Below are positions 3,434 to 44,374 of a stretch of 50,408 bases of DNA, one piece after another. The number at the start of each line of letters is the position of its first letter. Within the stretch, counting starts at the first letter, position 1. This stretch comes from an uncultured Gammaproteobacteria bacterium (GTDB taxonomy: Bacteria > Patescibacteriota > Patescibacteriia > UBA9934 > GWF2-40-263): NCBI GenBank assembly GCA_964499955.1, contig CAZCMI010000002.1, positions 17,078 through 67,485 on the forward strand, in the 5' to 3' direction. The position numbers and the translations under genes were made by a program. The notes beneath the pieces are model-generated. The model ran no database searches, was not told the DNA's origin, and saw only the letters and a list, made by a program, of their open reading frames with translations.

Positions 3434-3715
3434 TTACATTTCCGGAAACAGCTGCGTCCCCGCTTCGTCGTAGATGAAGATGGCCAGCGTGGGGCAGGAC
3501 TGTGCGGCCAAGATGATCGTTTCCTTTTCGTCTTCGGTCACCTCCAGCACGCGTTCGTAGACGCGCGTGGGGTCCGGCACCGGGGCGGGCGCTCCGTGGT
3601 CCAGCACGTACGCCTTGTTTTCGTCGTTCATTTGGAACGTGCTCGGATCGACCGTCACGCACGAGGCGGCGCCGATGCACAGGTCCGGGTCCACTTTCAC
3701 AGTGAGTTTGGGCAT
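3434..3715 (-). CDS. Small ferredoxin (single Fe-S cluster type)
   Basis: 93 aa. The motif KVDPDLCIGAASCVTVDP ... AAQSCP is the typical Cys pattern of single-cluster ferredoxins. Confidence 0.75.
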   Translation of the reverse strand: MPKLTVKVDPDLCIGAASCVTVDPSTFQMNDENKAYVLDHGAPAPVPDPTRVYERVLEVTEDEKETIILAAQSCPTLAIFIYDEAGTQLFPEM

Positions 3716-3727
3716 AACGAATGCGGG

Positions 3728-4402: not shown

Positions 4403-4492
4403 AGGAAGAACATCAATGTTGAGTGATGATAGACCGCATCGACGGGGAAAGTAAAGGCATGCAGGCCCGTTGCCGGAGGCGCGCTGAAACGG

Positions 4493-5344
4493 TTATTCCA
4501 GCAGTATTGCCCGCACCTGTTGTTCAAGAATCTTTCGATCTACCTGCAGAAGGTCTTGTGGTCGAAGGTTCTCCCGGCGCATAAATTCTTCCGTGAACCA
4601 AAGCCCCGCGAAATATCCTGATCGGTATTTGAAGATATTGTTTGGATCGTTCGCAAGAAACAATTCGTTCTGTTCTGGAGATTCATTCCATTGTTCGTAT
4701 ATGACCTTACCCAGTTCTGACAAATGCTCCTTGCAATCAGACATCCACCGATCTGCTTGGGTGGGCGGTAAATAATCTGCCCAGAGAGCCGTCGTGTCGC
4801 CACAATCAAGGACATGCTTGGTCAGACAGGTTGCCATCCCTTCGGTCAGGAATTGACGCCCCGTTTGCTGCTGCTCTTTCTTTGACGTGAAGAAAAATTC
4901 CGGACGCGCTTGATAGTGGAGGGCGTGCACGATTTCGTGCGTCACGAACACGTCGACTTGTTTTTCCGTTTCATACGCTTCCACCGGAATCCAAACCGTA
5001 CTTTTCCCCTGTTCCAGAAACGCGTGGCCGTTACTCGTTCCCTGCCCAACAAAGAGCACGAGGGAAAGATCGTGTATCCGCAGTCCTTTTCGTACCATCG
5101 TTTCCTCAATGATAGGCAGACGCGTGCGTAAAAGATGTTGCTTCTGCTGCAGGTCCCGTTCGGAAAGCACAGGAACCCCGTCCATCGGCCGTTTCGCCCA
5201 GTACGAAAAATAATGCGCAAACAAAGAAGGTGCTGTTTGCACATATTCTTCAAAACGATTTTGACGAATGACGAGGTCTTTATAGACGTCCGTAAGATCA
5301 GTGATACGCATACCTTCACACGTAAAGGACGACCTCGTACTCAT
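4493..5344 (-). CDS. HExxH (THEIVHALH) putative zinc metallopeptidase-like protein, low-GC gene
   Basis: 283-aa ORF. Its ATG overlaps the nifS stop (ATGA at 5341-5344). It is clearly AT-richer than its flanks: 23/60 G+C in 4621-4680 and in 5221-5280, versus 39/60 in 5401-5460. Confidence 0.65.
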   Translation of the reverse strand: MSTRSSFTCEGMRITDLTDVYKDLVIRQNRFEEYVQTAPSLFAHYFSYWAKRPMDGVPVLSERDLQQKQHLLRTRLPIIEETMVRKGLRIHDLSLVLFVGQGTSNGHAFLEQGKSTVWIPVEAYETEKQVDVFVTHEIVHALHYQARPEFFFTSKKEQQQTGRQFLTEGMATCLTKHVLDCGDTTALWADYLPPTQADRWMSDCKEHLSELGKVIYEQWNESPEQNELFLANDPNNIFKYRSGYFAGLWFTEEFMRRENLRPQDLLQVDRKILEQQVRAILLE

Positions 5345-11948: not shown

Positions 11949-13085
11949 TTACGCCTTGATCGGCATGATGATGTACAGGTACCCCGTCCCGCCGTCTTGG
12001 GCGCGCAAAATGCACGGGTTGGCAGCGTCGATCATCTGCACCTGCACGCGCTCCGTCCCCACGGCGGAGAGGCCGTCGAGCAGGTAGCGGTAGTTCAAGG
12101 TGACCGTGTTTTGCGGGCCGGACACCTCGGCCGCGCACGACGCCGTGTTTTCGCCGCGGTCGGCGTCCACGGACTTCACTTCCAATTTCTTTTCGTCCGG
12201 GTGGAAAGCGAGCGTGACGTCGAACAGCCCGGCGCGGGAGAACAAACTGGCCGTTTTCACCGCCTTGGTGAAGTCGTCGCGGTCCACGACGGCATTGGTT
12301 TGGAATTGCTGCGGGATGATCTGGCGGTAGTCGGGATAATTCCCCTCGATCATGCGCGAAACGATTTCCACGGAACCGTAGGAGAAAACGACCTGGCCCT
12401 CGGACAGCCCGAGCGAAACGGTGGTTGGTGCCTCCACGGAATCGCGGAACACGGACAACACGCGATTCACCTCCGCCAGCGTTTTGGCCGGGATGATGAC
12501 GCGCTGTTCTTCCACTGACTGGCCCGGCAGGTCGATGACGCCTTCCGCCAGGCGATAGGAGTCCGTGGCGGCCAGCACCGCTTCCCCGCCGCCGTCTTTC
12601 TTCCTGAATTCGACGGAGACGCCGGTGAGCTCCGGACGCGCCTCGCTGGTCGAAACCGCGAACAGGACGCGCGAGAGCGTCTCCCGGAAGCCCTCAACGG
12701 GCAACTGGTACACGCGGTCGCCCTGGATTTTCGGCACCAGCGGGAAATCCGCCGCGGACAAGCCGTTGATCTTCGTGCGGTTTCCGCCGCAGGACGCCGC
12801 CAAAGACGCCGCGTCGGCCGAAACGGACACATGTTCGTTCGGTAACAAGGCGACGTAATCGTGGAACAGGCGCGCCGGCACAGTGAATTCTCCCGGTTCG
12901 TCCACTTTTCCGCGCACCACGCAGGAGGTGGCGATTTCCAAGTTCGTGGTGGTCAGACTGATGGTCCCGCCTTCCGCACGGATGAGCACGTTCTGCAAGA
13001 TGGGAAGATTTACGTTTTTCCCCGTTACGTGACTCGCAATGGAAAGTCCCTGGGAAAGATTGTCACGCGTGCACGAGAACTTCAT
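11949..13085 (-). CDS. dnaN: DNA polymerase III beta sliding clamp
   Basis: 378 aa. MKFSCTRDNLSQGLSIASHV...LPILQNVLI is the canonical DnaN N-terminus. It sits directly downstream of dnaA. Confidence 0.92.
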   Translation of the reverse strand: MKFSCTRDNLSQGLSIASHVTGKNVNLPILQNVLIRAEGGTISLTTTNLEIATSCVVRGKVDEPGEFTVPARLFHDYVALLPNEHVSVSADAASLAASCGGNRTKINGLSAADFPLVPKIQGDRVYQLPVEGFRETLSRVLFAVSTSEARPELTGVSVEFRKKDGGGEAVLAATDSYRLAEGVIDLPGQSVEEQRVIIPAKTLAEVNRVLSVFRDSVEAPTTVSLGLSEGQVVFSYGSVEIVSRMIEGNYPDYRQIIPQQFQTNAVVDRDDFTKAVKTASLFSRAGLFDVTLAFHPDEKKLEVKSVDADRGENTASCAAEVSGPQNTVTLNYRYLLDGLSAVGTERVQVQMIDAANPCILRAQDGGTGYLYIIMPIKA

Positions 13086-13352
13086 ATTCAGAAAGGGGAC
13101 TTTAAATAAGAAGTAGAAGCAGTAGGGCGGTGGACGGAGTGGATGAACGGGAGAATGTCGCTCAACCTCGCGTCGTTTTCCTGTGGGCTCTTGTGGACGC
13201 CCTTGGGATGAATCCGTGGATGAAATGTGGACGGCTGGGGTAGGACGTTTCGGCGGCCGAAGTCGTCCACAGGATTGTCCACGTTTCAGCGGCGGTTATC
13301 CGTTCGTTGTCCACGGCTTGTCCCATGTGGAAGGGTTGTGCCTTCCTTGTGG
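13086..13352. other. Candidate oriC: DnaA-box cluster in the dnaA-dnaN intergenic region
   Basis: Ten 9-mers contain the TCCAC core. TGTGGA orientation: 13129, 13138, 13192, 13215, 13226, 13326. TCCACA orientation: 13263, 13275, 13307, plus TTATCCGTT at 13296. An AT-rich tract lies at 13081-13125. Confidence 0.6.
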
Positions 13353-14882
13353 CTAAACCGTGTACAGCCGCTGGCGGATCAGTTCCACGTCATGCTGGAG
13401 CTGTTCGTCCTGCGTGAGGCAGGAGCAAATCTTCCCGTAGGCGTGCATGGCCGTGGTGTGGTCGCGCCCGCCGAGCTCCGCCCCGATGGACGGATAACTC
13501 GACTTCATCTCCTCCCGCATGAGGTACATGATGATTTGCCGCGGGAAAGCGTAGCGCTTTTCCCGGCTCTTCCCGACCAGGTCCTCTATTTGCAGGTCGT
13601 AGTGTTCCGCCACAGTTTGGATGAGCTGCCGCGCGGTGACGGTGCGTTTGGTGTGCGCCGGCTGGAAGCTGGAAAGGATGGGTTTGACCGTATCCAGGGT
13701 GGCCGGGATGTTCTTGAAGTGGTGGAAGGCGATGACCTTGTTGAGCGCGCCTTCCAATTCCCGGATGTTGCTCTGCACCGACGTGGCGACGTGGTGCAGG
13801 ATGTCCCGCGCCATCGGGAAGGATTTTTCCCGGCATTTCGCCTCCAGGATGGCCACGCGGGTTTCGAAGTCCGGCGTGCCGATGTCGGCCATCATGCCGC
13901 TTTCGAAGCGGGAGATGAGGCGGCTTTCCAGGAACGGAATGGCCTTGGGCGGCCGGTCCGCCGTGATGACGAGCTGTTTGTTGTTTTGGTGCAGCTGGTT
14001 GAAGGTGTGGAAGAACTCCTCCTGCGTGCCTTCCTTTCCGGTGAGGAATTGGATGTCGTCCACGAGCAGCAGGTCCACGCTGCGGTAGTAGTTGCGGAAG
14101 TCCCGACCCTGGCCCGTGCGAACCGCGTTGATGAAGTCCGTGGTGAAGCGCTCGCTGGTGACGTAGAGCACGCGGGTGTGCCCGGCGCGGCGCAGGATTT
14201 CGTTGCCGACGGCCTGCAATAGGTGGGTTTTGCCCAAGCCCACGCCGCCGTAGATAAACAGGGGGTTGTAGACGCCGCCGGGTTGGGATGCCACGGCCTG
14301 GGCGGCCGCGTGGGCCAGCTCGTTTTGCTTGCCGACCACGTAGCTGCCGAACGCGTACTTGGCGTTCAGAGTGAATTCCCCGAGGCGGGAGCCGGGCGGC
14401 GGGGCCGCGGGCGGGCTTGCGGGAGCGGGGGCGGCGGCGTTTTGGACGGACGACGGGTTGGTGGGGGCGGATGCGGGCTGGCTGGGTGCCCGTTCCTGTT
14501 CCACGATAACCGTTACGTGCCCCGCGGCGGGGCTTGCCGACGCCGGTTCGTACACGGGCACCGGTTCGGGCGGGGTTTCCGGCAGGACGGTGGCCGGTTC
14601 CGCCTCAACCATGGCGACGGGGGCGGGCGGTTGGCGCGTTTCCACGCGGTAGGTGATGGTCCGGACGTTCTGCTGCGCGTGGGTTTGTAAGGATTGCAGG
14701 ATATCCTTGTGGTATTTCTTTTCCAACCACGCCTTGGTGAACAGGTTGGGAACACCGATAACGACATCGCCGTCGCCGAAGGACGCGATGAAGGTATTGC
14801 GGAACCAGGTCGTAAAATTCGCCTTGCTCAGCGAAAGTTCCAACCCGCCCAGCACCGCCAGCCACAGTTCATGGGTGTTCAT
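13353..14882 (-). CDS. dnaA: Chromosomal replication initiator DnaA
   Basis: AAA+ motifs GGVGLGKTHLL and LLVDDIQFL, and a C-terminal DNA-binding helix region. It has a long P/A-rich domain II. The start could be 14882 (MNTHELW) or 14915. Confidence 0.92.
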   Translation of the reverse strand: MNTHELWLAVLGGLELSLSKANFTTWFRNTFIASFGDGDVVIGVPNLFTKAWLEKKYHKDILQSLQTHAQQNVRTITYRVETRQPPAPVAMVEAEPATVLPETPPEPVPVYEPASASPAAGHVTVIVEQERAPSQPASAPTNPSSVQNAAAPAPASPPAAPPPGSRLGEFTLNAKYAFGSYVVGKQNELAHAAAQAVASQPGGVYNPLFIYGGVGLGKTHLLQAVGNEILRRAGHTRVLYVTSERFTTDFINAVRTGQGRDFRNYYRSVDLLLVDDIQFLTGKEGTQEEFFHTFNQLHQNNKQLVITADRPPKAIPFLESRLISRFESGMMADIGTPDFETRVAILEAKCREKSFPMARDILHHVATSVQSNIRELEGALNKVIAFHHFKNIPATLDTVKPILSSFQPAHTKRTVTARQLIQTVAEHYDLQIEDLVGKSREKRYAFPRQIIMYLMREEMKSSYPSIGAELGGRDHTTAMHAYGKICSCLTQDEQLQHDVELIRQRLYTV

Positions 14883-14952
14883 ACCGCGGACGACGTCAAA
14901 AAAGAGATGCCCCATTCCCGGAAAACGGGAAGGAACGATTGGCGATGGCGCT

Positions 14953-22814: not shown

Positions 22815-23213
22815 TTATACTTCCTGAGTGAAGGTCTTTTTGCATTCGATGCAGGAGCCGGAGGTCGGCCGGGCGCGCATGCGGCGTTCGTCGATGTCTT
22901 GTTTGCAGTAGGTGCAGACGCCGTAGGTGCCCTTTTTGATGGCTTCCAGGGCTTTTTCCACGTCGCGCAGGGCGCGGGACAGTTCCGTTTCCACGGACAG
23001 GCTGTCGCTGAAGGCGGCGACTTCCGCCGCGCTTTCATCTTCGCTTTCTCCCGCATGGTCGTCCGCGGGGCCGTGGGAAGACGCTTGGCGGTGGCTCAGG
23101 CGGGACAGTTCCTCCTCCAGGCGCGTTTTCTCGGTCTGCAGGCGGGTTTCCATTTCTTGGACGAAGGAAGGAGCAAGGGCCATATCGTCTGAACGATGAA
23201 TGAATGTTGCCAA
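22815..23213 (-). CDS. DksA/TraR-family C4 zinc-finger protein
   Basis: Coiled-coil N-terminal part, then CTYC-x17-CIEC. The start is 23213 or 23183. Confidence 0.75.
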   Translation of the reverse strand: MATFIHRSDDMALAPSFVQEMETRLQTEKTRLEEELSRLSHRQASSHGPADDHAGESEDESAAEVAAFSDSLSVETELSRALRDVEKALEAIKKGTYGVCTYCKQDIDERRMRARPTSGSCIECKKTFTQEV

Positions 23214-23234
23214 AGAATGTACCAGGGATTTTCT

Positions 23235-23613
23235 AAAAAAACAACGGACCGATAGGCCCTACAAGTATAAGTGCAGGGACCGTAATCGGTCCGGAAGGAA
23301 CAAGATGACGCCAACTCGCGTTGGCGCAGGGATACACGGAAAACGGCCAAAGGCGTTTCACGCATGTCTCTGCGCCACACAGCGAATATGAAGCGTCTCA
23401 TCTTGCAAGATGACACGCCTTCTCTACCGATTCATCGGTCTTATCCGCGGACGTTCCCGGAGGAACGCTATGGTGCGGACGGGCCCAGCCACGCGCCGGA
23501 CTAGGACGACGTATGGCAGAACAGTAGAGAAGCGGGATATCCCTCGAAAGCGTGGGGTGCCTTCGGGGGAACTCTCTGTGGTGTCTTGGAAAGAACGTCG
23601 CACCTCTAAGGTA
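23235..23613 (-). ncRNA. Candidate ~375-nt structured RNA or long leader of unknown class
   Basis: No credible ORF. It has a promoter upstream (23621-23649). On the minus strand, perfect hairpins carry stable loops: 23452-23467 (UCCG loop), 23426-23439, 23394-23417 and 23309-23326 (GCGA loop). It ends in the nested hairpin 23246-23292 plus a U7 run. Confidence 0.45.
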
Positions 23614-23620
23614 CACAAAC

Positions 23621-23649
23621 AGTTTACCCGTTTTTGGTCATTTTGTCAA
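23621..23649 (-). promoter_or_regulatory. Sigma70-like promoter for the candidate RNA
   Basis: The minus strand reads TTGACA (23649-23644), a 17-nt spacer, then TAAACT (23626-23621). Confidence 0.5.
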
Positions 23650-23731
23650 TTGATATATCTACCGTATTTTTAGCTGAAAAATCGAATGGTCTACACGAAA
23701 AGTCGTCAACGGATTTTTTCCAAGGGAAAAG

Positions 23732-23771
23732 TTATCCACATTTCCACCGTTTTTCACACAACTTATCCACA
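23732..23771 (+). promoter_or_regulatory. Two perfect DnaA boxes (TTATCCACA), same orientation, 31 bp apart
   Basis: Exact 9-mers at 23732-23740 and 23763-23771. They lie next to an AT-rich tract (23620-23730). Confidence 0.7.
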
Positions 23772-23774
23772 GTT

Positions 23775-25175
23775 CTAATAACACAGGCGAATTGTCGTGG
23801 AAAACGGGGAATTCTTGAGGGAACCTTCGCTGAACGTGAGGGAAAGGTCACGCAGGACATTTGGTTGGTGGAACGTGGCGGATGAGGCGGCGAATAAATC
23901 CCGCATGGACGCATAGGCCGCGCCTTGGAAGCAGACGCTGGCCTTAGTCGGTTCCCCGTCCGGTTCTTCTTCGATGCCAAGCCAGGCAAACGCCAGGCGT
24001 TCCCGGTTCGTCAGGGCGAAGGACTGGTCTTTTTCCGCCAGAACGGCCACGTGCCCGTTCGGAGAACGTACATGCCGCACCCGTCCACCGGCCAACAGAC
24101 GCTCTTCCACGGTGACGGAGGCGGGGTCCGCGACGATTTCATCTGCCTGCGTTTGGTCCGGCAGAGTCCACGGGCGTAGCGTAGGTGCGTAAAAGGCCGC
24201 GGAAGCCGTGAGTAACCGCAAACGGTCTTCAGGCGACAACCCGTCGTTTTCCGTGGAAAGAACGTACCCGAACCCTTCCGATTCCGTCTCGTCGGGTTCC
24301 CGTGCAAGCAACAGGGTGCTAAAGGTGTTCGCGACCGCAGGTGCGTGGATTTGGCGGAGCAAGGTATCTATGTGCGCGGACGCGCCGAGCGAGGCTTCTT
24401 GTTCTTCCAGACCGTTGTTTGGCCACACTGGTGTAGACATATGGAGAACCGTTCCGGCGGGAAAGCGTTTCCATGGGGACGCCGGCAGGGGCAGACGCGG
24501 CAGGCGGATCGCCCAGCCGTCCGCATCCGCCGTCACCACGCCTGTTTTCCACGATCCGTCCGGTTTCCCTTCCCATTGTACGTAGGCCGTGCCCACGCGG
24601 GGGAAAAACAATCCCCAGGCCCGCCGAACCCAGGGCTGCGGCAGGCGAACGGCGGTGAGCGGCCGGGAACGGTCCGTCAGGACCACCAGGCCGGAGCTGG
24701 CGGACGTAGCCGTGATGCCATGGGTGTCCAACAGGTCTTCCAAGGAGGGCGGTTCGTAATTGTCTTCATCTGCGGGCGTTTCCTCCGTCGGGGTCTGCCA
24801 AAACAGAAGTCCTTCCGGCACAGCAAGCGTTTCCGAGCGGATGGCGGCGGACCGGCGGCCGTCGGCGTCGAAAAACACGGCGAGGTCCCCGTTCGCGTAC
24901 GGGGCGAGTTCCCGCAGGGTCAGCCCGCGGTCGGACACGGCCGTCAGGTGCCCGACGGCGTCCAGGACGCGTTCCCAGCCGTTTGCGCCCGGATGCAGGC
25001 GCAGGATGGCGACCGTGCCCTCCGGCACGGCGGAACCGACGTCCGTACGTTCAAACCAGGCCGTCGTGCCCGCATAGGCGGCCGCCAAGCAGGCGATCAG
25101 CCCCAAAAACCACGCAACCCGCCGGGCGGGGCGGGTTGCGGAGGTTCTTCCCAAGGGGATGTTCAGACGCGACAT
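23775..25175 (-). CDS. Hypothetical membrane-anchored protein (466 aa)
   Basis: The ATG at 25175 lies 4 nt after the pnp stop. N-terminal TM helix VAWFLGLIACLAAAYAG. The remainder is soluble with no motif I recognise. Confidence 0.6.
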   Translation of the reverse strand: MSRLNIPLGRTSATRPARRVAWFLGLIACLAAAYAGTTAWFERTDVGSAVPEGTVAILRLHPGANGWERVLDAVGHLTAVSDRGLTLRELAPYANGDLAVFFDADGRRSAAIRSETLAVPEGLLFWQTPTEETPADEDNYEPPSLEDLLDTHGITATSASSGLVVLTDRSRPLTAVRLPQPWVRRAWGLFFPRVGTAYVQWEGKPDGSWKTGVVTADADGWAIRLPRLPLPASPWKRFPAGTVLHMSTPVWPNNGLEEQEASLGASAHIDTLLRQIHAPAVANTFSTLLLAREPDETESEGFGYVLSTENDGLSPEDRLRLLTASAAFYAPTLRPWTLPDQTQADEIVADPASVTVEERLLAGGRVRHVRSPNGHVAVLAEKDQSFALTNRERLAFAWLGIEEEPDGEPTKASVCFQGAAYASMRDLFAASSATFHQPNVLRDLSLTFSEGSLKNSPFSTTIRLCY

Positions 25176-32144: not shown

Positions 32145-32219
32145 GGCGGCCATAGCTCAGTGGTAGAGCACCGGATTGTGGCTCCGGCTACACGGGTTCA
32201 ATTCCCGTTGGTCGCCCCA
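32145..32219 (+). tRNA. tRNA-His (GTG) with encoded G-1
   Basis: G-1 lies opposite C73. Acceptor GCGGCCA/TGGTCGC, anticodon arm CCGGA-TTGTGGC-TCCGG, T arm ACGGG-TTCAATT-CCCGT, encoded CCA. Confidence 0.9.
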
Positions 32220-32293: not shown

Positions 32294-33304
32294 ATGAAAC
32301 ATTGGCTCGCCGCCATCGTGACGTTTCTGGTCCTGACGGGCGTGGGGTGCGCCGCGTTTTCGTTCCGTTCTTCGGGCGTGGACGCTCCCGCCCCCGTTAC
32401 GGAACCGGTGGACGCGCTGCTCGCCGTCGTCGGAACGCGCGACGCGGACGGGCGTCGTTTGGAACTCATTCTGCCGGACGGCAGCGTGGAGGACGTCGAC
32501 TACGGCGAACTCGACGCGTCGCTTGCGGAAGAAGGAACCTTGGTGCGCGTCTCCGGCGTCCGTGATTTGTCCACGCGCGCCATCCGCGCGGAGGCGTTGG
32601 ACCGGGAACAGGCCGCCGGTATCCGCGTCACGTCCCCCGCCCCCGGCGCCACCGTCACCTCGCCCGTGGTGGTGTTCGGCTTCGTCCGTGCGGAAACGGG
32701 GGAGATCTCCTGGCAGTTGTCTGACCAGGACGGTGCGGTTGCCGACCACGGATCGGCGCGCCTGTCGGATGCGCCGCAGGATGCCTTTGTTCCGTTCCGT
32801 TTGGAATTGTTCCCGCCGGCGTTTGAACGGGCGGCTTTCACCTTGGAACTGTCCGTGCGCGGCCGCGATGGGCGCGACCAGGACGCCGTTTCCCTGCCCC
32901 TCTCTTTGTTGTCCGCGGACGCGACGGACCTGACCCTGTATTTTGCGCACGATGCCCAGGGGTCCGCCCGCGACTGTTCGCTGGTGTTCCCGGTAACGCG
33001 TCGGATCGCCCGTACGTCGGCCGTGGCCCGTGCCGCCGCGGTGGAATTGGTGAAGGGTCCGACCGTCGAGGAAATGGCGAGCGGGTACCGCAGCCGCCTG
33101 CCGCCGGAAACGTCCCTGCGTTCCCTGTCCGTCACGGACGAAGGCGCGGTGGCGGACTTCTCCGCGGCGCTCGGCCGCCTGCCGTCGAATTGCCGCAACA
33201 TGGGCATTCGCGCCCAGCTGGCGCAAACGTTGCTGGCCGTGCCGGGCGTTCACGACGTGTCCGTGTTGGTGGAAGGGGTGCCTGCGCCGGCGTTTCAGCC
33301 CTGA
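32294..33304 (+). CDS. Lipoprotein with Gmad2-like Ig domain and GerMN-like domain
   Basis: Lipobox LTGVGC. The middle segment IRVTSPAPGATVTSPVVVFGFVRAETGEISWQL has an Ig-like pattern. The C-terminal LTLYFAHD...VFPVTRRI...AAAVELVKGP fits the GerMN pattern. Confidence 0.65.
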   Translation: MKHWLAAIVTFLVLTGVGCAAFSFRSSGVDAPAPVTEPVDALLAVVGTRDADGRRLELILPDGSVEDVDYGELDASLAEEGTLVRVSGVRDLSTRAIRAEALDREQAAGIRVTSPAPGATVTSPVVVFGFVRAETGEISWQLSDQDGAVADHGSARLSDAPQDAFVPFRLELFPPAFERAAFTLELSVRGRDGRDQDAVSLPLSLLSADATDLTLYFAHDAQGSARDCSLVFPVTRRIARTSAVARAAAVELVKGPTVEEMASGYRSRLPPETSLRSLSVTDEGAVADFSAALGRLPSNCRNMGIRAQLAQTLLAVPGVHDVSVLVEGVPAPAFQP

Positions 33305-33333
33305 GGGGCGGCCGTGCTTCAAAAAAGCGTTGG

Positions 33334-33358
33334 AAGCCCCGCGTTTGCGGGGTTTTTC
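33334..33358 (+). terminator. Intrinsic terminator after the lipoprotein gene
   Basis: CCCCGC gttt GCGGGG TTTTT. Confidence 0.75.
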
Positions 33359-33378
33359 GTTTGCGCAGGATGCGACGC

Positions 33379-33407
33379 TTGACAGGATTCCGGCCCGGCC
33401 GTACTAT
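33379..33407 (+). promoter_or_regulatory. Near-consensus sigma70 promoter of orphan gene A
   Basis: TTGACA (33379-33384), a 17-nt spacer, then TACTAT (33402-33407). Confidence 0.6.
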
Positions 33408-33435
33408 ACGCCGCGCTGCTCGGAAACCCGTGGCC

Positions 33436-33461
33436 AAAAAGCCCCGATCCGTCGGGGTTTT
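33436..33461 (+). terminator. Promoter-proximal terminator-like hairpin in the gene A leader (attenuator?)
   Basis: AAAAA G CCCCGA tccg TCGGGG TTTT. It lies about 30-55 nt downstream of the -10 element. Confidence 0.5.
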
Positions 33462-33601
33462 GAAGATCCCGGAGAACGGCACGACGCTCTCTCACAACCG
33501 AGCGAACCAATTCCGGAACCTTCCGGAAAACCCGCCGAAGGCATGTTGCCAACGGCACCAACCCCGCCTCCGCAAACAGGAGGCAAACGCAGGAGTACGT
33601 G

Positions 33602-34846
33602 ATGCAGAAGCAGACGCAGACCAAGAGCCTCAAGATCGGCGGCAAGACCATCACCGGGAAGAACTTCTCGGAGATGCGGCACCAGATCAAGGCCCTCGAC
33701 CTCGCGGCCGAGGAGCGCAACGCCTGGCTGAGCCAGGCCGGGCAGCTCTTCTCCAAGAAGGACAACGGCTACGCCGGCAAGACCCCGCGCAACCGCCACG
33801 AGCGGCGCGCGCAGGCGAAGAGCGACGTCTCCCGCAAGGAGATGGAGCTCGACGGCATCGCCCTCGAGATCTTCGAGGGCCCGATGCGTCAGGTGCTCGG
33901 CCACGTGCGCCGCCGCCCGCGCAACGTGATCTTCGCCTCGGTCGAGAGCCGCCTCTCGACCAAGAACGTCATCATCGTCGCGGTCAAGGGGGAGGTGGGG
34001 AAGATCACCTGGGGCCGCATCGACAAGGCGGACCTCAAAGCCTACTTCGAGCGGGACGGCTACTCCATGCTCTCGAGCATGAAGGCCGTCGGCGACGCCC
34101 GCAACGGCGTCATCATCCACGCGACGGGCCAGAACCTGCGCCTGCCCAACGTGCGCAGCTTCGTCCAGGCGTTCGCGCGCCAGGCCTACCGGGGCACCAC
34201 GCTCGTCGGCGCCAAGCTCAACGGCGAGGAGGTCTCGACGAACGTGTTCGTCACCCCCGACGGCATCGAGCGCGAGGCGGCCTCCTGGCCGGCGTCGAAC
34301 CTCGGCGCCTACGCGGTGGTGAACATCGGCAGCGAGCCGGTGACCTACCTCGGGGAGAGCGGCTACGCGGCCATCACGGCCAAGGGCCAGCTGCTCGTCG
34401 CGGGCTTCACGGCGCTCATCGCCGGTGGCGTCCACCGCCTCTTCAACAAGGCCGCCGTCATCGCGAAGATGCCGTGGACGGAGATCGTCGGCCTCGAGCT
34501 CAAGAAGCTCGACACCGTCCTCGACGTCGCGGTCTCGCACCGCGTGGAGGGCAAGACCGACACCTTCAAGGTCTACGTGACCGGGAAGGGGCAGATCGCC
34601 ATCCTGAACGTCGTCTTCAAGAACGGCACGTTCGCGCTCGACGGCAACGTCGAGTACAAGCCGTTCAACTACGACGGCATGGCGCTCTTCGGCCGGACGA
34701 ACGACCGCACGGTGACGCTCGCCAACCGCAACGGCGGGCCGACCGCGCTCGAGTTCGTCCCCACCAGCACGTTCGCGGACATCGACCCGGCGTTCGCCGC
34801 CTGGTCGAACACCGCCGACGCCCCCGCGTCGCAGCCGAACGCCTAG
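33602..34846 (+). CDS. Orphan protein A (414 aa), no recognised family
   Basis: The AGGAG SD lies 6 nt before the ATG. Amino-acid composition is balanced, whereas the antisense ORF is R/G-rich junk. GC3 bias is very strong (AAG, CTC, ATC, GAG, GGC). The N-terminal ~95 aa are K/R/E-rich and the rest has mixed beta-like character. No TM helix or signal peptide. Confidence 0.7.
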   Translation: MQKQTQTKSLKIGGKTITGKNFSEMRHQIKALDLAAEERNAWLSQAGQLFSKKDNGYAGKTPRNRHERRAQAKSDVSRKEMELDGIALEIFEGPMRQVLGHVRRRPRNVIFASVESRLSTKNVIIVAVKGEVGKITWGRIDKADLKAYFERDGYSMLSSMKAVGDARNGVIIHATGQNLRLPNVRSFVQAFARQAYRGTTLVGAKLNGEEVSTNVFVTPDGIEREAASWPASNLGAYAVVNIGSEPVTYLGESGYAAITAKGQLLVAGFTALIAGGVHRLFNKAAVIAKMPWTEIVGLELKKLDTVLDVAVSHRVEGKTDTFKVYVTGKGQIAILNVVFKNGTFALDGNVEYKPFNYDGMALFGRTNDRTVTLANRNGGPTALEFVPTSTFADIDPAFAAWSNTADAPASQPNA

Positions 34847-34900
34847 CGCGCCGTCGGCCGCTGGGCAGAGCGGCAGATGACCCTGGTTCGTTCGGTACGT

Positions 34901-34941
34901 CCGCCCGCCTTCCCCCACTCGGGAAGACGGGCGGTTTTTTT
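34901..34941 (+). terminator. Strong intrinsic terminator of gene A
   Basis: Nested stem CCGCCCG..CTTCCC ccactc GGGAAG..CGGGCGG followed by TTTTTTT. Confidence 0.8.
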
Positions 34942-34953
34942 GTTCGTCTTCCC

Positions 34954-34982
34954 TTGACAGAATCGGATTTTCCGCTTATCCT
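34954..34982 (+). promoter_or_regulatory. Sigma70-like promoter of orphan gene B
   Basis: TTGACA (34954-34959), a 17-nt spacer, then TATCCT (34977-34982). Confidence 0.55.
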
Positions 34983-35103
34983 CGCGACGTCGCCCGCTCG
35001 GGTGATATCCGGTTCCGCCGGATCCTTGCGGCAGGCATCGTGCCCGCCGCCTTCCCTGACTGGTGCCGCGCCTTTGCGCGCACCAAGACCTCGAGGAGAG
35101 GTA

Positions 35104-36099
35104 ATGTCCGAGAACGTTTCGACCGACCGCGCCACCCACCGTTCCACCCGCATGCGTGCCGGCGAAAGCCCGCCGTCGCAGGTGGTGCCGATCTCGCAGG
35201 CCCCCACGCTGTTGCGTGTGGGCACGCCCATCGCCATCGGCATCGCGCCCGGCAAGCGCGGAAAGGAGCCGATCGTGCACCTCGTGCACGCCGACTTCTC
35301 CGCCCACGCCGACCCGGACGCCTTCGCGTACGTCGCGTCCGCGGCGGTGTTCGGCCGCATGGGTGTCGGGGACGGCCCGGTGGCCATGCTGTCCTTCGCG
35401 GGCAGCCTGCCCCCGCTCGGCATCGCCGCTTCCTTCGGGAAGCTGATGCTGGAGGAGGGCGCATGGGCGACCCCGTCCCGCTACCGGCTCTTCGACACGG
35501 TCGACGGCCCGGTGGCCTGGTGCGTGGCGGACATCCGCCACGCGCAGGCGGTGCCGATCACCTCCGCGGGCGCCGCCCGCGGAAACGCACGCGTCCTGTT
35601 CGCTCCCGTGGGGCCGAACATGGCCGTGGAGGTCGTCCAGGGGCGCAGCGACATGCGTCTCCTCAACCTCCTCAACATGCGCGAGATCCTCGCGGCGGAG
35701 GAGCCGTCGAGGCAGAAGTGCCCGTGGGGGCGCAGCGGCAACGTCGTGTACCTGCCGCACCCCGTCGTCGCCATCTCCGATGGCTACTGGAAGGGCAAGC
35801 AGGCCAACGGCGTTCTGCTGCAGGACGAACTCCGCGTCCTGGTCACCATGGAGTCCATCAAGGGCACCATGTGCCAGGTCGTCGACCTGCACCTGCCGGG
35901 TTCGCCGTTCCGCGCCCGTCCGCCGCAGTTCATGCTGCGGTCGGAGCCGTTCCCGCTGGAGGAGGGTGGGAACACCCGCCCGTTGGCCATCGGGCCCGAG
36001 GGCGTGGCCGTCGCCCGCCGCGCGGACGGCTTCCGCTTCATGGAGGTTCGGCCTCCCGAGGCATTCACGAACGCCTTCGCCCAGGCGCTGAAGTTCTAG
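35104..36099 (+). CDS. Orphan protein B (331 aa), no recognised family
   Basis: The real start lies inside track ORF 33190..36099: GAGGAGAGG SD, then the ATG at 35104 (MSENVSTDRATH...). The stretch upstream contains a terminator and a promoter, so it is not coding. No TM helix, signal peptide or catalytic motif that I recognise. Confidence 0.65.
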   Translation: MSENVSTDRATHRSTRMRAGESPPSQVVPISQAPTLLRVGTPIAIGIAPGKRGKEPIVHLVHADFSAHADPDAFAYVASAAVFGRMGVGDGPVAMLSFAGSLPPLGIAASFGKLMLEEGAWATPSRYRLFDTVDGPVAWCVADIRHAQAVPITSAGAARGNARVLFAPVGPNMAVEVVQGRSDMRLLNLLNMREILAAEEPSRQKCPWGRSGNVVYLPHPVVAISDGYWKGKQANGVLLQDELRVLVTMESIKGTMCQVVDLHLPGSPFRARPPQFMLRSEPFPLEEGGNTRPLAIGPEGVAVARRADGFRFMEVRPPEAFTNAFAQALKF

Positions 36100-36120
36100 C
36101 GCCCTGTTCCGTTCTCTCTT

Positions 36121-36165
36121 CGTCGCCCGTCCTCCCCAGGACGCGGCGACGTTTTTCTTTTTCCG
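36121..36165 (+). terminator. Strong intrinsic terminator of gene B
   Basis: 12-bp stem with a one-nt bulge (CGTCGCCCGTCC ... GGACGCGGCGACG), followed by TTTTTCTTTTT. Confidence 0.8.
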
Positions 36166-36188
36166 CCGCCTTGCTACCATGCGGGCAC

Positions 36189-38831
<2,643 letters not shown>

Positions 38832-40356: not shown

Positions 40357-41487
40357 TCAGTCCAGCGACGGCTTTTCGGCCTCCAGCAGCTCAAAGGTCT
40401 TCCCTGCCTGCCCTTCCGTAATACGGTAAATGTCCTTGTCGATCTTCCCGAATTCCTTGGCGGCCAAATTGTATTGGTTGGCCGTGGTCGTGAGGTGTTT
40501 GCCGACGTTTTGGAAATACCCGGCATAGGCCTCCATGTGCTTGCCGAATTCCGCCATGCGCTGGCGGATTTCCTGCGTGCGCGCTTCCAGTTTCATGGCG
40601 TTCAAGCCCTGCAGGACCGTTTGCAGGTACGCGAGGAACGACGTTGGGGACACGATGATGACATGGTGTTTCGCGGCGGCGCGCTGCAGGATGTTTTCCT
40701 GCTCGTCCCCGTTGCCCGCGCCGATCTTGTTGACCAGCAATTCGTAGTAAATGGCTTCGTGCGGAATGAACATGAACGCGAAATCCACCGTCCCTTCCGT
40801 CGGCCGAATGTACTTGGCCGTTTCCAGGATCCGGGCCTTCAGGTCGCCCAAGAATGCCTGTTCCAGCCGTTTCTTCGAGTCCTGGTTCGTTTCAACCGCC
40901 AAGCGATTGTAGTTTTCCAGGCTGAATTTGGAATCCACCGGCACCACCTTTTCCTGCACGAATACGGCGGCGTCGACGATGTCCCCGTCTTGGAACTTAT
41001 ATTGCATTTGAAAGGACGCGGGCGGCAGCGTGTTCCGCAGGACGGTTTCCAGGAAATATTCCCCCAAAATACCACGTTGTTTGGGGTTCTTGAGAATGTT
41101 TTGCAGATCCGCGAGTTGGGAACCGTAGTCAAGGATTTGCTTCTGCGTTGCTTTGAATTCCCCCGCCTGTTCCTTGAATTGACCGGTGAACTGCGTCACA
41201 AGCGTTTGGATCATGTCGCTGGTCTGTTTCAGGTTGCTCTGCAGCAGTGTGGATTGATCGTTTGAGCTGCGGAAGAGGCGGTCGTTCATTGCATCCAAGC
41301 GTTGTTGCAGTTCCGTGCGGTGCTGCGCGTTCAGCAGTTCGACGTCGCGGCGCAGGTGCCGCAATTCATCAACCAAAGCGGTATTTTCAGGCGTGTCAGA
41401 TGTTTGTTTTTTCCGTGCAAACACGTAGAGAGCGACACCGAGCGCGCCGGCGGCAAGCAGAAGAGTGGCCAAGGTAAGGGCGTCCAT
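40357..41487 (-). CDS. rmuC: DNA recombination protein RmuC
   Basis: Trimmed to MDALTLATLLLAAG (TM helix). It has a long coiled coil, then the RmuC nuclease-like core (GILGEYFLE..., VDFAFMFIPHEAIYYE, VIIVSPTSFLAYL). Confidence 0.82.
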   Translation of the reverse strand: MDALTLATLLLAAGALGVALYVFARKKQTSDTPENTALVDELRHLRRDVELLNAQHRTELQQRLDAMNDRLFRSSNDQSTLLQSNLKQTSDMIQTLVTQFTGQFKEQAGEFKATQKQILDYGSQLADLQNILKNPKQRGILGEYFLETVLRNTLPPASFQMQYKFQDGDIVDAAVFVQEKVVPVDSKFSLENYNRLAVETNQDSKKRLEQAFLGDLKARILETAKYIRPTEGTVDFAFMFIPHEAIYYELLVNKIGAGNGDEQENILQRAAAKHHVIIVSPTSFLAYLQTVLQGLNAMKLEARTQEIRQRMAEFGKHMEAYAGYFQNVGKHLTTTANQYNLAAKEFGKIDKDIYRITEGQAGKTFELLEAEKPSLD

Positions 41488-41756
41488 AAGAAAAGTGGAT
41501 AGGTGATCGTTGACGATGACAAACCGTTCCCGTATCATACTCGCACCGCACGCGGGCTTCCAGTCATTTGTCCGGACTGGTGTACGCCGTGTCGCCCCTT
41601 CCCTCTTTACACGCACGATTTCTCCGGAACGTTAGGGTTTTCTGTAGACTTAAATATTTTGCGACACAAGAAGTCTGCTCCCAACTCGCCCTTGTACTTC
41701 GTTCAAGGGCTCATCCCTCGGAAGAACAAAACATTTTGTTCTTCACTCGGAATTTT

Positions 41757-41831
41757 GCCCTTGTAGCTCAACGGATAGAGCAAATCCGTCCTAAGGATGA
41801 GATGGGGGTTCGATTCCCTCCAAGGGCACCA
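41757..41831 (+). tRNA. tRNA-Arg (CCT)
   Basis: Acceptor GCCCTTG/CAAGGGC, D arm GCTC-AACGGATA-GAGC, anticodon loop GTCCTAA, T arm GGGGG-TTCGATT-CCCTC, A73, encoded CCA. Confidence 0.85.
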
Positions 41832-41842
41832 GCGGGACGTTC

Positions 41843-41860
41843 GTTTCACGTGAAACATTA
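41843..41860. repeat. Copy 1 of an 18-nt motif containing a 14-bp palindrome (GTTTCACGTGAAACATTA)
   Basis: It lies 12 nt after tRNA-Arg(CCT). It matches 42347-42364 at 17 of 18 positions. Confidence 0.6.
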
Positions 41861-41876
41861 GTTGAGCAGTTACCAT

Positions 41877-41952
41877 GGGCCGATAGCTCAGTTGGTAGAG
41901 CGCTGCATTCGCATTGCAGAGGTCTGGGGTTCGACTCCCCATCGGTCCACCA
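41877..41952 (+). tRNA. tRNA-Ala (CGC)
   Basis: Acceptor GGGCCGA/TCGGTCC with the G3:U70 pair, anticodon arm CTGCA-TTCGCAT-TGCAG, T arm TGGGG-TTCGACT-CCCCA, encoded CCA. Confidence 0.9.
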
Positions 41953-41986
41953 AAAGAACACCCAATTTCGGGTGTTCTTTTGTTTT
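41953..41986 (+). terminator. Intrinsic terminator after tRNA-Ala
   Basis: AGAACACCC aatttc GGGTGTTCT TTTGTTTT. Confidence 0.8.
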
Positions 41987-42346
41987 CCGTTTCGTCTTAT
42001 ACAGATTCGGCGTGTGCATGTTTTTTATTTTGATGCGTGAAACCAATTCAGGAGTTAATCGGCAGCAGCGGGAGAGCGTTTCATTTCGGTTGCGTAATCG
42101 AGGGTGGGATGAAAGGAACACAGGATCAGTTGTTTATAGGCGCTCATCTGTACTTGATTTCTTCAGACCAAATTTACCCTTCGAATTGATCATTGCGTAT
42201 CAGCATGAACAGTTGTTGGAAAATTCCCCAGACTGATCTCTAGCCGTGAAGACATGTTGGTATTCTCATTCTGATTATTCATTGAACTTGCCGCGTTATT
42301 TTGTGTTCCACATGTTAGGAACGAGTTCCGAAAATTTCATGAAAAT

Positions 42347-42364
42347 GTTTCATGTGAAACATTA
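42347..42364. repeat. Copy 2 of the 18-nt motif (GTTTCATGTGAAACATTA)
   Basis: It sits inside the AT-rich non-coding region and is preceded by the related palindrome TTTCATGAAA (42334-42343). Confidence 0.6.
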
Positions 42365-42447
42365 AATATAATTAATTTGTCTACGCCAGTTTAGACAAAG
42401 TTAAAATTTTGATCAAACAAAATTGAACACATCGTTTAACCACCATT

Positions 42448-42456
42448 TTATCCACA
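42448..42456 (+). promoter_or_regulatory. Perfect DnaA box TTATCCACA upstream of the surface-locus promoter
   Basis: Exact 9-mer, about 25 nt upstream of the putative -35. Confidence 0.5.
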
Positions 42457-42478
42457 TAGTGGGGATTGCCTGTTTCGC

Positions 42479-42507
42479 TTCAGGAACCTTCTTGCACATG
42501 GTATGAT
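42479..42507 (+). promoter_or_regulatory. Extended -10 promoter of the surface locus
   Basis: TTCAGG, a 17-nt spacer, then TGgTATGAT (TG at 42499-42500, TATGAT at 42502-42507). It is followed by an AGGAGG SD (42519-42524) and the ATG at 42529. Confidence 0.5.
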
Positions 42508-42528
42508 GTGGGGTGAATAGGAGGACCT

Positions 42529-43440
42529 ATGCGCGTTGTTGCTCTCATTTGCGCGTTTGTAGCCGGTTTGTTCGGCTGGGTTTCGTTTGGGCGGGCGGAA
42601 ATGAACTCCGCCAACTACATGATTCGGTGGGACAGCATCGGATCCGGAGGAGGCGACACAGCCGCGTCCGCAAGCTTTCTTCTGCGGGACACCGTGGGGA
42701 ATCTTGGCGTGGGGGCGGGCGCGTCCGAGACGTATTTCCTTCAATCCGGGTACCGAGCAGGAGTGCTAGATCAGTTCGTTTCGTTTGATGTTTTCGCGCA
42801 AGTGAGCGCGTCGGCCGTGGCGGCGACCGCGCGGACGGGTGAGACAGTCACGGTCGCCTCCGCCGCGGGGTTCGGCGTCGGGGACTATCTCGCGCTGGTG
42901 CAGGATCGCGGTGCGTCCCAGGTTTCCGCCGTCGGGCGCATCGTTTCCATTGTGGGCAACCAGGTGACGGTGGACCAGTTTGCAGACAACGGCACGTCGC
43001 CGGTGATCGACGGAACAAACGATTATGCGTATCGCCTTGCGGGCGTGGCGGCGAATTTGGGAACGCTGAGCACGTCGGAGGTCGCGACGGCCCTGATCGG
43101 TTTTGAGGTGACGGCCGACGTGGACGGCGGATATACGGTTTTCGTGGCGGAAGACGGCGGTTTGCGCAGCGGGCCGGAGGAAATCAACAAGGTGTCGGAC
43201 GGCGCCGTGACGGCCGGATCGGAAGAATATGGCGGCCAGTCGTCGGATACGGCGGTCACCGGCTCCACGTTCGGCACGCAAGACACGGCGTTCACGATGG
43301 TACTTCAACCGATCGTTGAATACGGGTCGAACGCGTTCCAGCGCCGCGATTTTCTGACGTTGAAAGCCGCGATTTCGTCCTCAACCCCGAATGCCACGTA
43401 CAGCCACGTCCTGTCCATGATTTTTGTGCCGAATTTCTGA
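42529..43440 (+). CDS. Secreted protein (303 aa), first gene of the surface locus
   Basis: Signal peptide MRVVALICAFVAGLFGWVSFGRA. Duplicated S-x-x-Y/F-x-L...G motifs (SANYMIRWDSIGSGGG, SASFLLRDTVGNLG, SETYFLQSGY). The mature part is Cys-free and G/T/S/V-rich. Confidence 0.7.
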   Translation: MRVVALICAFVAGLFGWVSFGRAEMNSANYMIRWDSIGSGGGDTAASASFLLRDTVGNLGVGAGASETYFLQSGYRAGVLDQFVSFDVFAQVSASAVAATARTGETVTVASAAGFGVGDYLALVQDRGASQVSAVGRIVSIVGNQVTVDQFADNGTSPVIDGTNDYAYRLAGVAANLGTLSTSEVATALIGFEVTADVDGGYTVFVAEDGGLRSGPEEINKVSDGAVTAGSEEYGGQSSDTAVTGSTFGTQDTAFTMVLQPIVEYGSNAFQRRDFLTLKAAISSSTPNATYSHVLSMIFVPNF

Positions 43441-43444
43441 CCTT

Positions 43445-44374
43445 ATGCGCCGCTTCGCCTCCCTCTTTCTCGCCTTGTTCCTGACGGTTGTTCCAGCCGC
43501 CGCGTCCGCGTTTTCCGTTTCTCCCGGCACGGCGGACCTGCGTTTGGAGGCGGGGCAGGGCGACACGCGCGAACTCGTGCTGACGAACACGTCCCCGCAG
43601 GCGGAAACGTATTACCTGCGCACGGTGCCGTTCCAGGTGGAAGAAGGCGCCGCGGGCCCTGTTTTCGGCGGGGAAGACCCGTTGGGGGTGGCGGGTTGGC
43701 TTCGTGTGCCGCCGTCCGTGCGGGTGGAAGCGGGCGCCCGGGAAACGGTTTCCGTGCAGGTGGCCGTTCCGCCGGCCGTTCCGCCGGGCGGGTATTATGC
43801 GGCCGTCCTGGTTTCCCCCACGCCGTCCGAGGTCGTGGCTGTGGCGGGCGGCGCAGGCGTTCAGGCGACCATCGCCGTCCCGTTCTATCTTGCGGTGGGC
43901 GGCATGGGCGTCGAGCGCGTGGGTCTGCTTTCTTTCGGCCCGACCGATGGCAAACAGGTAACGGACGGGTTGTGGGGCTTCTATGAATTCCAGCTGCAAA
44001 ACCAAGGGACCGTGCACGTCGTGCCCGAAGGATCCATCACGGTCCGCGACGTCTTCGGCCGCCGCATGGCCGAAGGCCCCGCGAACCCGAAGGAATTACG
44101 GATCATGCCGGGGCAAACCCGCGCGTTTTCGGAAGGCTTGGTATTGGAGCGGCCACCGACGTTTTGGGACGTCGTGAAGGCACAAGGGCGGTATTTCGCG
44201 CTTGGACCCGTCACGGTGGAGTTGGCCTTGGAACAGGGGCCGACGCCCGAGCAGCCGGTCAACGCCTCGTACCGGTTGTGGGTGTTGCCATGGCAGCTGG
44301 CGGCCGTGGTTGTGGGCGGCGTGGCCGTCCTGTACGGCGTGTTGCGTCTTCTGACGCGCCGCCACCCCGTTTGA
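43445..44374 (+). CDS. Signal-peptide protein with two Ig/PapD-like modules and a C-terminal TM anchor (DUF916/DUF3324-like architecture)
   Basis: Trimmed to MRRFASLFLALFL. FSVSPGTADLRLEAGQGDTRELVLTNTSPQAETYYL is a chaperone-like beta-sandwich pattern. The C-terminal TM helix is WQLAAVVVGGVAVLYGVLRLL, followed by RRH. Confidence 0.65.
   Translation: MRRFASLFLALFLTVVPAAASAFSVSPGTADLRLEAGQGDTRELVLTNTSPQAETYYLRTVPFQVEEGAAGPVFGGEDPLGVAGWLRVPPSVRVEAGARETVSVQVAVPPAVPPGGYYAAVLVSPTPSEVVAVAGGAGVQATIAVPFYLAVGGMGVERVGLLSFGPTDGKQVTDGLWGFYEFQLQNQGTVHVVPEGSITVRDVFGRRMAEGPANPKELRIMPGQTRAFSEGLVLERPPTFWDVVKAQGRYFALGPVTVELALEQGPTPEQPVNASYRLWVLPWQLAAVVVGGVAVLYGVLRLLTRRHPV

Follow-up and report, generated by a model that had tools for sequence, protein, structure and literature searches.

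Background

The surface-layer (S-layer) genes of Gram-positive bacteria, such as slpA of Lactobacillus and the S-layer cassette of Clostridioides difficile, are single-gene units with one or more very strong promoters, a long stabilizing leader, a strong Shine-Dalgarno (SD) sequence, a strong terminator and extreme codon bias. S-layer proteins are 40-50 kDa in size, free of cysteine and basic (isoelectric point (pI) above 9 in lactobacilli), and their genes show almost no conservation between strains, with alleles or cassettes being replaced at a fixed locus. We describe here two adjacent genes, called A and B, that lie between a lipoprotein gene and polA in a 50,408-nucleotide stretch of DNA (contig CAZCMI010000002.1, positions 17,078 to 67,485), referred to below as the window. 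S-layer genes are the closest analogy that we found for A and B, which at best would work like them. The likeness is one of sequence signals, and includes the promoters, leader, terminators, codon bias, basic proteins and cassette-like divergence. Unlike S-layer genes, A and B encode no Sec signal and no SLH, CWB2, LysM or other anchoring domain, their products resemble no S-layer protein in sequence or structure, and they are two independent genes rather than one.

Three other kinds of variable loci share features with the pair. Replacement-type islands and antigenic loci (O-antigen, flagellin, pilin) also have a fixed position between core genes, sharply bounded divergent content and similarity patterns that disagree with those of the flanking genes. 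However, the alleles of A and B are still homologous and keep their promoter, leader and terminator, genes for glycosyltransferases or surface structures do not accompany them, and their GC content at third codon positions (GC3) is above that of the genome, while replacement-type flexible islands are usually of lower GC. Islands integrated at tRNA genes resemble the locus in having atypical codons, orphan genes and nearby tRNAs with a tyrosine recombinase. They differ in that A and B are present in all relatives, with host-type promoters, no att-like repeats and no mobile relatives, and in that the recombinase here is a conserved Xer-type gene outside the variable segment. Defence hotspots likewise consist of a variable slot between conserved housekeeping genes that holds proteins without known domains, but the slot described here always holds the same two families within a strong, conserved regulatory frame, and neither has a PADLOC match.

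An initial annotation of the window, made from the letters alone, read A and B as a laterally acquired two-gene module or one under unusual selection. Our comparison with related loci leads to a different explanation, which we regard as probable: A and B are native, clade-specific, highly expressed genes, and their coding sequences are replaceable cassettes inside a conserved regulatory frame.

Genes A and B occupy a fixed slot

Gene A (33602..34846, + strand) encodes 414 amino acids and gene B (35104..36099, +) encodes 331. Their left neighbor is a Gmad2/Germane lipoprotein gene (32294..33304, +; Pfam PF10646, 1e-14, and PF10648, 2e-8) with a lipobox signal recognized from the sequence. Their right neighbor is polA (36189..38831, +), identified from its translation, with Pfam domains recorded for the orthologues, and 61-75% identical to the orthologues within the clade. 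The ATG of polA is at 36189 and not, as first annotated, at 36190.

Seven loci with this slot were compared: the window, L001 (GCA_964502845.1), L004 (a 43-kb Logan contig), L007 (GCA_964616135.1), L008, L009 and L010. Wherever the contig reaches, the slot between the lipoprotein gene and polA holds homologues of both A and B in all seven. The order Gmad2/Germane, A, B, polA is complete in the window, L001, L004, L007 and L008 and partial in L009 and L010; the lipoprotein gene was found in the same position in L001, L004, L007, L008 and L010. Where the contig extends beyond polA it carries holA, then S20 and RmuC, both on the minus strand. Every related locus in which both positions are visible has A and B together, in agreement with the initial annotation. 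The junction is occupied in all relatives, including those whose holA is 61% and whose Gmad2 lipoprotein is 43-48% identical to that of the window, and the proposal of a laterally inserted segment fails on this comparison.

The tRNA-His gene lies one gene upstream of the pair in the window and the tyrosine recombinase 2.5 kb upstream. Both had been taken as signs of an island, and both are indeed there, but they belong to the conserved housekeeping synteny: tRNA-Arg(TCT), tRNA-His and the Xer-type recombinase are also found upstream in relatives, and the recombinase is 97% identical between L004 and L007. The remainder of the window is chromosomal and encodes housekeeping functions (NifS/NifU, PBP1, dnaN, dnaA, trigger factor, RNase HII, ComM, LspA, PNPase, DsbA and TsaC). 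No att-like direct repeats flank the A/B segment, where we found only short chance repeats. Relatives of A or B were absent from INPHARED phages, PLSDB plasmids and IMG/VR, and neither 5.8 billion clusters nor 1.84 billion representatives yielded any beyond the clade and slot.

Using polA, we identified outgroup genomes of the candidate phyla radiation (CPR) with a polA product 42-44% identical to that of the window and a GC content of 0.36-0.48. They have neither the lipoprotein gene nor an A/B-like gene upstream of polA, which leads us to conclude that the pair is an innovation of the window's clade. The nearest named polA relatives outside the clade are Yanofskybacteria/Paceibacterota metagenome-assembled genomes (MAGs; 42-44%); for Gammaproteobacteria the identity is about 38%. 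The host is probably an uncultivated, high-GC, Patescibacteria-like lineage. The MAG containing L007 (also L011, contig CAZTTQ010000021.1) is labeled 'uncultured Gammaproteobacteria', a label that looks doubtful given these polA relatives.

Other searches added little to the set of loci. A search of the metagenome collection with the promoter/leader DNA pattern returned one extra contig, with the L004 allele; a profile scan of the genome contigs with the A alignment gave no further locus, and an exact-protein look-up of the window's flanking genes gave the same strain only. The contigs of L002, L003, L005, L006, L009, L010, L037 and L038 end inside A, B or the flanking spacers. Coexisting alleles that branch the assembly graph could produce such ends, as could low coverage or breaks at hairpins.

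Divergence is confined to the coding sequences

The main comparison of divergence was made between the sister genomes L004 and L007. Protein identity between them is 97% for Xer, 92% for polA, 91% for RmuC, 89% for S20, 88% for holA and 87% for the Gmad2 lipoprotein, compared to 34% for A and 62% for B. Over all loci, the A alleles are 27-55% identical. At the DNA level, L004-L007 identity is 0.87-0.98 in the spacer between the lipoprotein gene and A and then drops to about 0.5 over precisely the A coding sequence. In the A-B spacer it is back at 0.93-0.97, and it is 0.6-0.8 in B and 0.86-0.96 beyond B. Divergence covers the entire A coding sequence, with hints of mosaicism. The three spacers (L004 8357-8588, 9807-10000 and 11027-11192) are 0.89, 0.93 and 0.87 identical, while the 1049 four-fold sites of the flanking genes are 0.58 identical, far below the spacers. 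Purifying selection on the leaders or on a functional leader RNA could account for this conservation, as could homogenization by recombination. The locus may help to explain how a non-coding frame comes to be conserved beyond neutral sites around a hypervariable gene.

Similarities among the alleles disagree with those of the flanking genes. The A protein of L004 is 47% identical to that of the window and 34% identical to that of L007, and polA shows the opposite, with 75% and 92%, respectively. The two genes also disagree with each other: A and B are 34% and 62% identical between L004 and L007, 44% and 29% between L001 and L004, and 31% and 57% between L008 and L009. A and B have therefore not been inherited as a unit, which counts against a laterally acquired two-gene module.

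A diversity-generating retroelement (DGR) or a silent-cassette mechanism was considered as the source of the variation and set aside, as no template repeats or silent copies were found in the available DNA, which comes from partial genomes. The 50-kb window, L001, L004, L007 and L008 gave no second copy of any part of A or B, and no reverse transcriptase is among the annotated genes. The same allele was identical in several samples, and for this reason nothing points to hypermutation being under way.

Of the flanking genes, that of the Gmad2/Germane lipoprotein evolves fastest. L004 and L007 share 87% identity in this protein, and identity to the window's copy is 43-48%, compared to 61% for holA and 70-75% for polA. 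The nonsynonymous substitution rate divided by the synonymous one (dN/dS) for its gene is 0.09-0.58.

Codon usage of A and B

The codon usage of A and B had been described as unlike that of the rest of the window, and calculation bore this out. GC3 at synonymous sites (GC3s) is 0.993 in A (z = 3.4) and 0.930 in B (z = 2.4), against a background of 0.779±0.062 in the 34 other open reading frames (ORFs) of the window. The GAA:GAG counts are 0:22 in A and 2:15 in B, compared to 479:215 in the other window genes, and CTC:CTG:TTG counts are 25:5:0 in A compared to 204:418:317 in the background. Expressed as fractions of leucine codons, CTC:CTG is 0.82:0.17 in A and 0.21:0.38 in bulk genes. Both genes have the periodicity GC3 > GC1 > GC2 (the GC contents of the three codon positions) that is typical of coding sequence, and GC1 and GC2 of A are not elevated.

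The direction of the bias in A and B correlates with that of the S20/S15 genes (Spearman 0.53) and the trigger factor gene (0.49; p < 1e-4 for both), all of which favor codons of the forms NNC and NNG. A preference for CTC, GTC and ACC over CTG, GTG and ACG, opposite to that of bulk genes, reverses the C:G ratio of codons ending in G or C for leucine, valine and threonine; CGC is also enriched. GC pressure alone cannot produce such a reversal, nor would GC-biased gene conversion predict it.

Across the loci, GC3 is 0.975-0.995 in the eight A alleles and 0.85-0.96 in B, compared to 0.54-0.91 in neighboring genes. A foreign codon signature would be expected to fade with divergence through amelioration, and since an equally extreme GC3 persists over alleles of 27-55% identity, we rejected a foreign origin of the anomaly. 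We infer instead that it is maintained by selection tied to expression or to properties of the mRNA. Unusual selection had been named as the alternative to lateral acquisition, and it fits better with an anomaly kept in all loci. Four-fold sites of A are 0.66-0.76 identical even between alleles that are 30-48% identical, and the synonymous rate dS is similarly depressed in S20 (0.15). With a GC3 near 0.99 kept over alleles of about 30% identity, in genomes whose neighboring genes vary so widely, the locus offers a clean natural case in which to separate selection on synonymous sites from mutation bias.

Expression signals

Each gene has its own promoter, leader, SD and terminator, and these two insulated cassettes were found where the initial annotation had placed them. 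The lipoprotein gene ends in a terminator hairpin with a U-tract (33327..33360, +), detected by RNA folding and kept in position in the intergenic alignment. A promoter scan identified TTGACA-17-TACTAT (33379..33407, +) before A, where L001, L004, L007, L008 and L010 have TTGAC[A/G]-17-TATCTT. The predicted A leader (33414..33601, +), measured from the predicted start of transcription, is about 188 nt long and contains the SD AGGAG at 33591-33595. It is strongly structured (fold z = -3.4) and has a 5'-proximal stem in which 33417-33423 pairs with 33498-33504 (TGCTCGG/CCGAGCG); the stem is supported by compensatory changes in six loci and, from its position, would have the geometry of a 5' stabilizer hairpin. 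The leader motif TCACAACCGAGCGAA occurs once in the window. Downstream of A is an intrinsic terminator (34901..34941, +) with a 13-bp stem followed by U7 (z = -2.5; -28.8 kcal/mol over a folded 71-nt stretch), and its position is conserved.

Gene B is preceded by the promoter TTGACA-17-TATCCT (34954..34982, +; promoter scan), which corresponds to TTGACC-17/18-TATCTT in L001, L004, L007, L008 and L009, and by a leader of about 115 nt (34989..35103, +) with short conserved hairpins and the SD GAGGAGAGG at 35093-35101. Its intrinsic terminator (36121..36165, +) consists of a 13-bp stem and U5CU5 (z = -3.8). An Rfam scan of both leaders returned no family, only sub-threshold, terminator-like matches.

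The promoter scanner found four sites in 5 kb, where 0.3 were expected. When the whole window was scanned on both strands for the best class of promoter, defined as a sigma-70 consensus match of at least 10/12 with a 17-nt spacer, seven sites were found, which precede A, B, S20, trigger factor, ComM and a tRNA pair or, in one case, lie in an unannotated region. A and B thus share the host's own high-expression class with S20 and trigger factor, in agreement with the initial description of their signals as host-like. The pair lies about 20 kb from the minimum of cumulative GC skew, on the leading strand.

Two further features of these spacers were noted. The window's A leader contains an extra GC hairpin and T-run (CCCCGATCCGTCGGGGTTTT) at 33438-33461, inserted within the conserved 5' stem; it is missing in the other loci, is terminator-like on both strands and could be an attenuator. 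Directly 5' of the polA ATG is the sequence GCTACCAT.CGGGCAC (window 36170-36191), kept in all loci including L001, L004, L007, L008 and L009. A -10-like TACCAT lies within it, about 9 nt ahead of the ATG, and an SD is lacking, which suggests that the polA mRNA may be leaderless or have a very short leader.

Protein properties and structure

Neither protein could be assigned to a family at first annotation, and database and structure comparison did not change this. A and B had no match in Pfam, NCBIfam, PHROGs or PADLOC (the last at E <= 1); all alleles searched against Pfam gave no consistent weak match and no domain even at E <= 10, and the A and B profiles matched no PDB sequence. Profile-profile comparison did not detect A and B as paralogues of each other. 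A word-indexed search of the 5.8 billion clusters returned three relatives of A (47-55% identical) and, with B as a single sequence, no homologue. An exhaustive HMMER profile search of the 1.84 billion representatives yielded five clusters for A; the most distant A relative (profile E = 8e-25) is also located in the lipoprotein-polA slot. Relatives of B, a family that evolves faster than A, were located by position as the gene after A (L001 to L002, E = 3e-16; window to L002, E = 2e-4). They share the motifs IAIGI...GK...H.V, DAF.YV...FG and ISD..W.GK among the window, L001 and L002. Two further B clusters were recovered by profile search, and a local hidden Markov model (HMM) detects B in all loci.

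The A protein of the window has a pI of 9.7 and no cysteine, and that of B has a pI of 9.1; neither has a signal peptide. Among all alleles the pI is 9.4-10.0 for A, with seven of the eight lacking cysteine, and 8.5-9.7 for B. The A alleles have a K/R-rich disordered linker (residues 53-73) and a disordered tail with, in many cases, AP-x-AQA at its end. An AlphaFold2 (AF2) model of A with a predicted local distance difference test (pLDDT) score of 62 begins with a small N-terminal beta-beta-alpha-alpha unit, followed by the basic disordered linker and then by an alpha/beta region, and is all-beta at the C terminus. Foldseek found no significant match to it, with best E values of 6e-3 in PDB and 4e-3 in the viral library and a TM score of about 0.2. 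The AF2 model of B (pLDDT 35) was unusable.

Invariant columns of the A alignment hold residues such as Gly, Trp, Pro, Lys, Ser and Asn and include no acidic, His or Cys residue, and this composition argues against A being a metal-dependent or thiol enzyme. The degenerate GxxxxGKN previously noted near residue 15 of A is present in the window in a non-canonical form, but the segment is not conserved among homologues (GKN in the window, FGKDFQGRN and NGTAVNGST elsewhere, with no GxxxxGK[ST]), and a P-loop was rejected. One A allele, that of L008 (1484-2770, protein P0011), has a hydrophobic helix, FFLAILAILLPTIIARAIA, at residues ~65-85 (Kyte-Doolittle 2.44) in place of the basic disordered linker of the other alleles; this helix may serve as a membrane anchor or reflect membrane association.

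Proposed mechanism and alternative explanations

In the mechanism we propose for native A and B genes, the pair would hold its slot on the leading strand in the order lipoprotein-A-B-polA, at a distance of about 20 kb to the replication origin, each gene forming its own transcription unit suited to very high output, with a sigma-70 promoter, a 5'-stem leader, a strong SD and a terminator. Selection linked to expression or to the mRNA would drive both genes to G/C-ending and mostly C-ending codons. Diverged alleles of A, and independently of B, would be exchanged by homologous recombination or persist as ancient polymorphism, and the promoters, leaders and terminators would stay conserved around the exchanged coding sequences. 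The products would be abundant, basic, non-enzymatic proteins, probably structural or binding, and would probably act at an interface facing an antagonist such as phage, the host cell or competitors, where diversifying or frequency-dependent selection could keep the alleles. It is interesting to speculate further that A and B are major interface proteins, envelope- or host-facing, which travel by a Sec-independent route and represent an undescribed cassette-variation system of a deep, high-GC, Patescibacteria-like lineage, with ancient alleles recombining independently and selection on mRNA or translation pinning GC3 at about 1. We put this more specific form forward tentatively. Surface and host-interaction proteins of the candidate phyla are mostly unknown, a search of the literature on CPR S-layers or abundant proteins found nothing relevant, and A and B are a concrete candidate for such proteins or for a new conflict system.

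Several observations weigh against this proposal. High expression of A and B is predicted from sequence signals alone, and the codon match to ribosomal-protein genes is partial: the GAA fraction is 0.57 in S20/S15 and 0.02 in A, and the Ala and Gly codon choices of A also differ from those of S20/S15, a reference set that is small (436 codons). The dN/dS of A is 1.3-2.0; because its synonymous sites are constrained, this ratio is uninformative on positive selection, and such a reading of it was dropped. About eight alleles were sampled, from low-coverage metagenome contigs, and the structure models of both A and B are weak. The eight A and six B alleles have no N-terminal hydrophobic signal (no dedicated predictor such as SignalP was used), and neither A nor B has a Sec/Tat signal, lipobox or cell-wall-anchoring domain. 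As the neighboring lipoprotein does have a canonical export signal, surface exposure of A and B is unsupported.

If A and B were instead an island acquired laterally near the tRNAs and recombinase, with the codon usage of its donor kept, their atypical composition, the upstream tRNA-His and tyrosine recombinase and the orphan status of both proteins would follow, and the lack of the genes in outgroup CPR genomes does indicate that the pair originated or came in at the clade's base. However, a recent acquisition is already contradicted by the shared junction in all seven genomes, the diverged relatives included, and the undimmed codon anomaly, promoters of the host's high-expression class, a recombinase and tRNAs that are core synteny, and the lack of att-like repeats and of phage, plasmid or IMG/VR relatives, with none outside the slot among the 1.84 billion representatives, make the island highly improbable. 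Atypical codons beside a tRNA and a recombinase are therefore not proof of an island, and here the comparison of synteny overturned that interpretation. Biased gene conversion offers another origin for the composition, in which a GC3 of about 1 is the by-product of a recombination hotspot and not of selection on expression. The signs of allele exchange and incongruence at the slot agree with this, as do the acceptance of G-ending as well as C-ending codons for four amino acids (Ala, Thr, Pro and Ser) and a reversal from GAA to GAG that is absent in S20/S15 and trigger factor. Biased conversion does not predict the strong shift in C:G ratio seen for Leu, Val, Gly and Arg, though, and the intergenic crossover regions are not GC-enriched (GC 0.53-0.65), nor are GC1 and GC2 of A raised; alleles that are about 50% identical in nucleotides cannot form the heteroduplex needed. 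We consider it unlikely. The antisense ORFs at 33404-34918 and 34843-36180 on the minus strand are 504 and 445 codons long and span A and B, so that they might be taken for the real genes and A and B for non-coding sequence. This has a negligible probability, since a mirror frame stays open as a matter of course once TTA, CTA and TCA are missing, as they are at a GC3 near 1, of which we took these ORFs to be a by-product. The SDs, promoters and terminators are in the sense orientation, the GC periodicity is of the coding type, and the protein homology has in-frame indels over eight A and six B alleles.

The remaining two alternatives concern the function of native genes. A and B might form an intracellular conflict system, either as cytoplasmic arms-race proteins (anti-phage defence or decoys) or as effectors delivered into a host cell by a non-Sec route. 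The lack of export signals and the extreme allelic divergence in a fixed core-gene slot, like that of defence hotspots, point in this direction; the disordered C-terminal tail of A could be a recognition signal, and the host is probably, by weak inference, of the episymbiont type. Against it, neither PADLOC nor PHROG matches were found, nuclease, NTPase and protease motifs are lacking, and no acidic, His or Cys residue is invariant in A. At defence hotspots, unrelated systems replace one another along with their promoters, whereas homologous alleles are found here in a conserved regulatory frame, and known defence genes do not as a rule have the design for maximal expression. We judge a conflict system to be rather unlikely. 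Abundant nucleic-acid binders, resembling nucleoid proteins or RNA chaperones and possibly autoregulating through their own leaders, would agree with the pI of 9.4-10, the K/R-rich linker of A, leaders conserved beyond neutral expectation (0.87-0.93 versus 0.58) and a slot among replication genes. This function is quite unlikely, as no DNA- or RNA-binding domain was detected in either protein, the hydrophobic helix that takes the linker's place in the L008 allele would point to membrane association, and hypervariability is unexpected in a housekeeping binder, known nucleoid proteins being small and conserved.

Other features of the window and related loci

The dnaN and dnaA genes (11949-14915) coincide with the cumulative GC-skew minimum at position 12,062, and the window probably contains the replication origin. 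The tRNA-His gene is on the + strand in the window (32146-32219) and on the minus strand relative to Gmad2 in L004 (7161-7235), L007 (4710-4784) and L010 (1147-1221), which points to a small local inversion. At 1799-4534, between tRNA-Arg and tRNA-His, L007 carries three genes that are extra relative to its sister L004 (NAGPA, Band_7 and an unknown gene); this is a second, ordinary variable spot beside a tRNA.

The unannotated low-GC stretch at 23200-23775 (GC 0.54) has no Rfam match and no long ORF, and holds a best-class promoter-like site at 23649 on the minus strand. The adjoining ORF (22815-23213, minus strand) appears, by eye only, to encode a DksA/TraR-type zinc finger. The lowest-GC part of the window (41000-43500, 0.51-0.52) contains tRNA-Arg(CCT), tRNA-Ala(CGC) and an ORF without a Pfam match (42529-43440). 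A small gene at 7411-7851 matches baeRF family 12 / Host_attach, a release-factor-like family described as 'required for attachment to host cells'.

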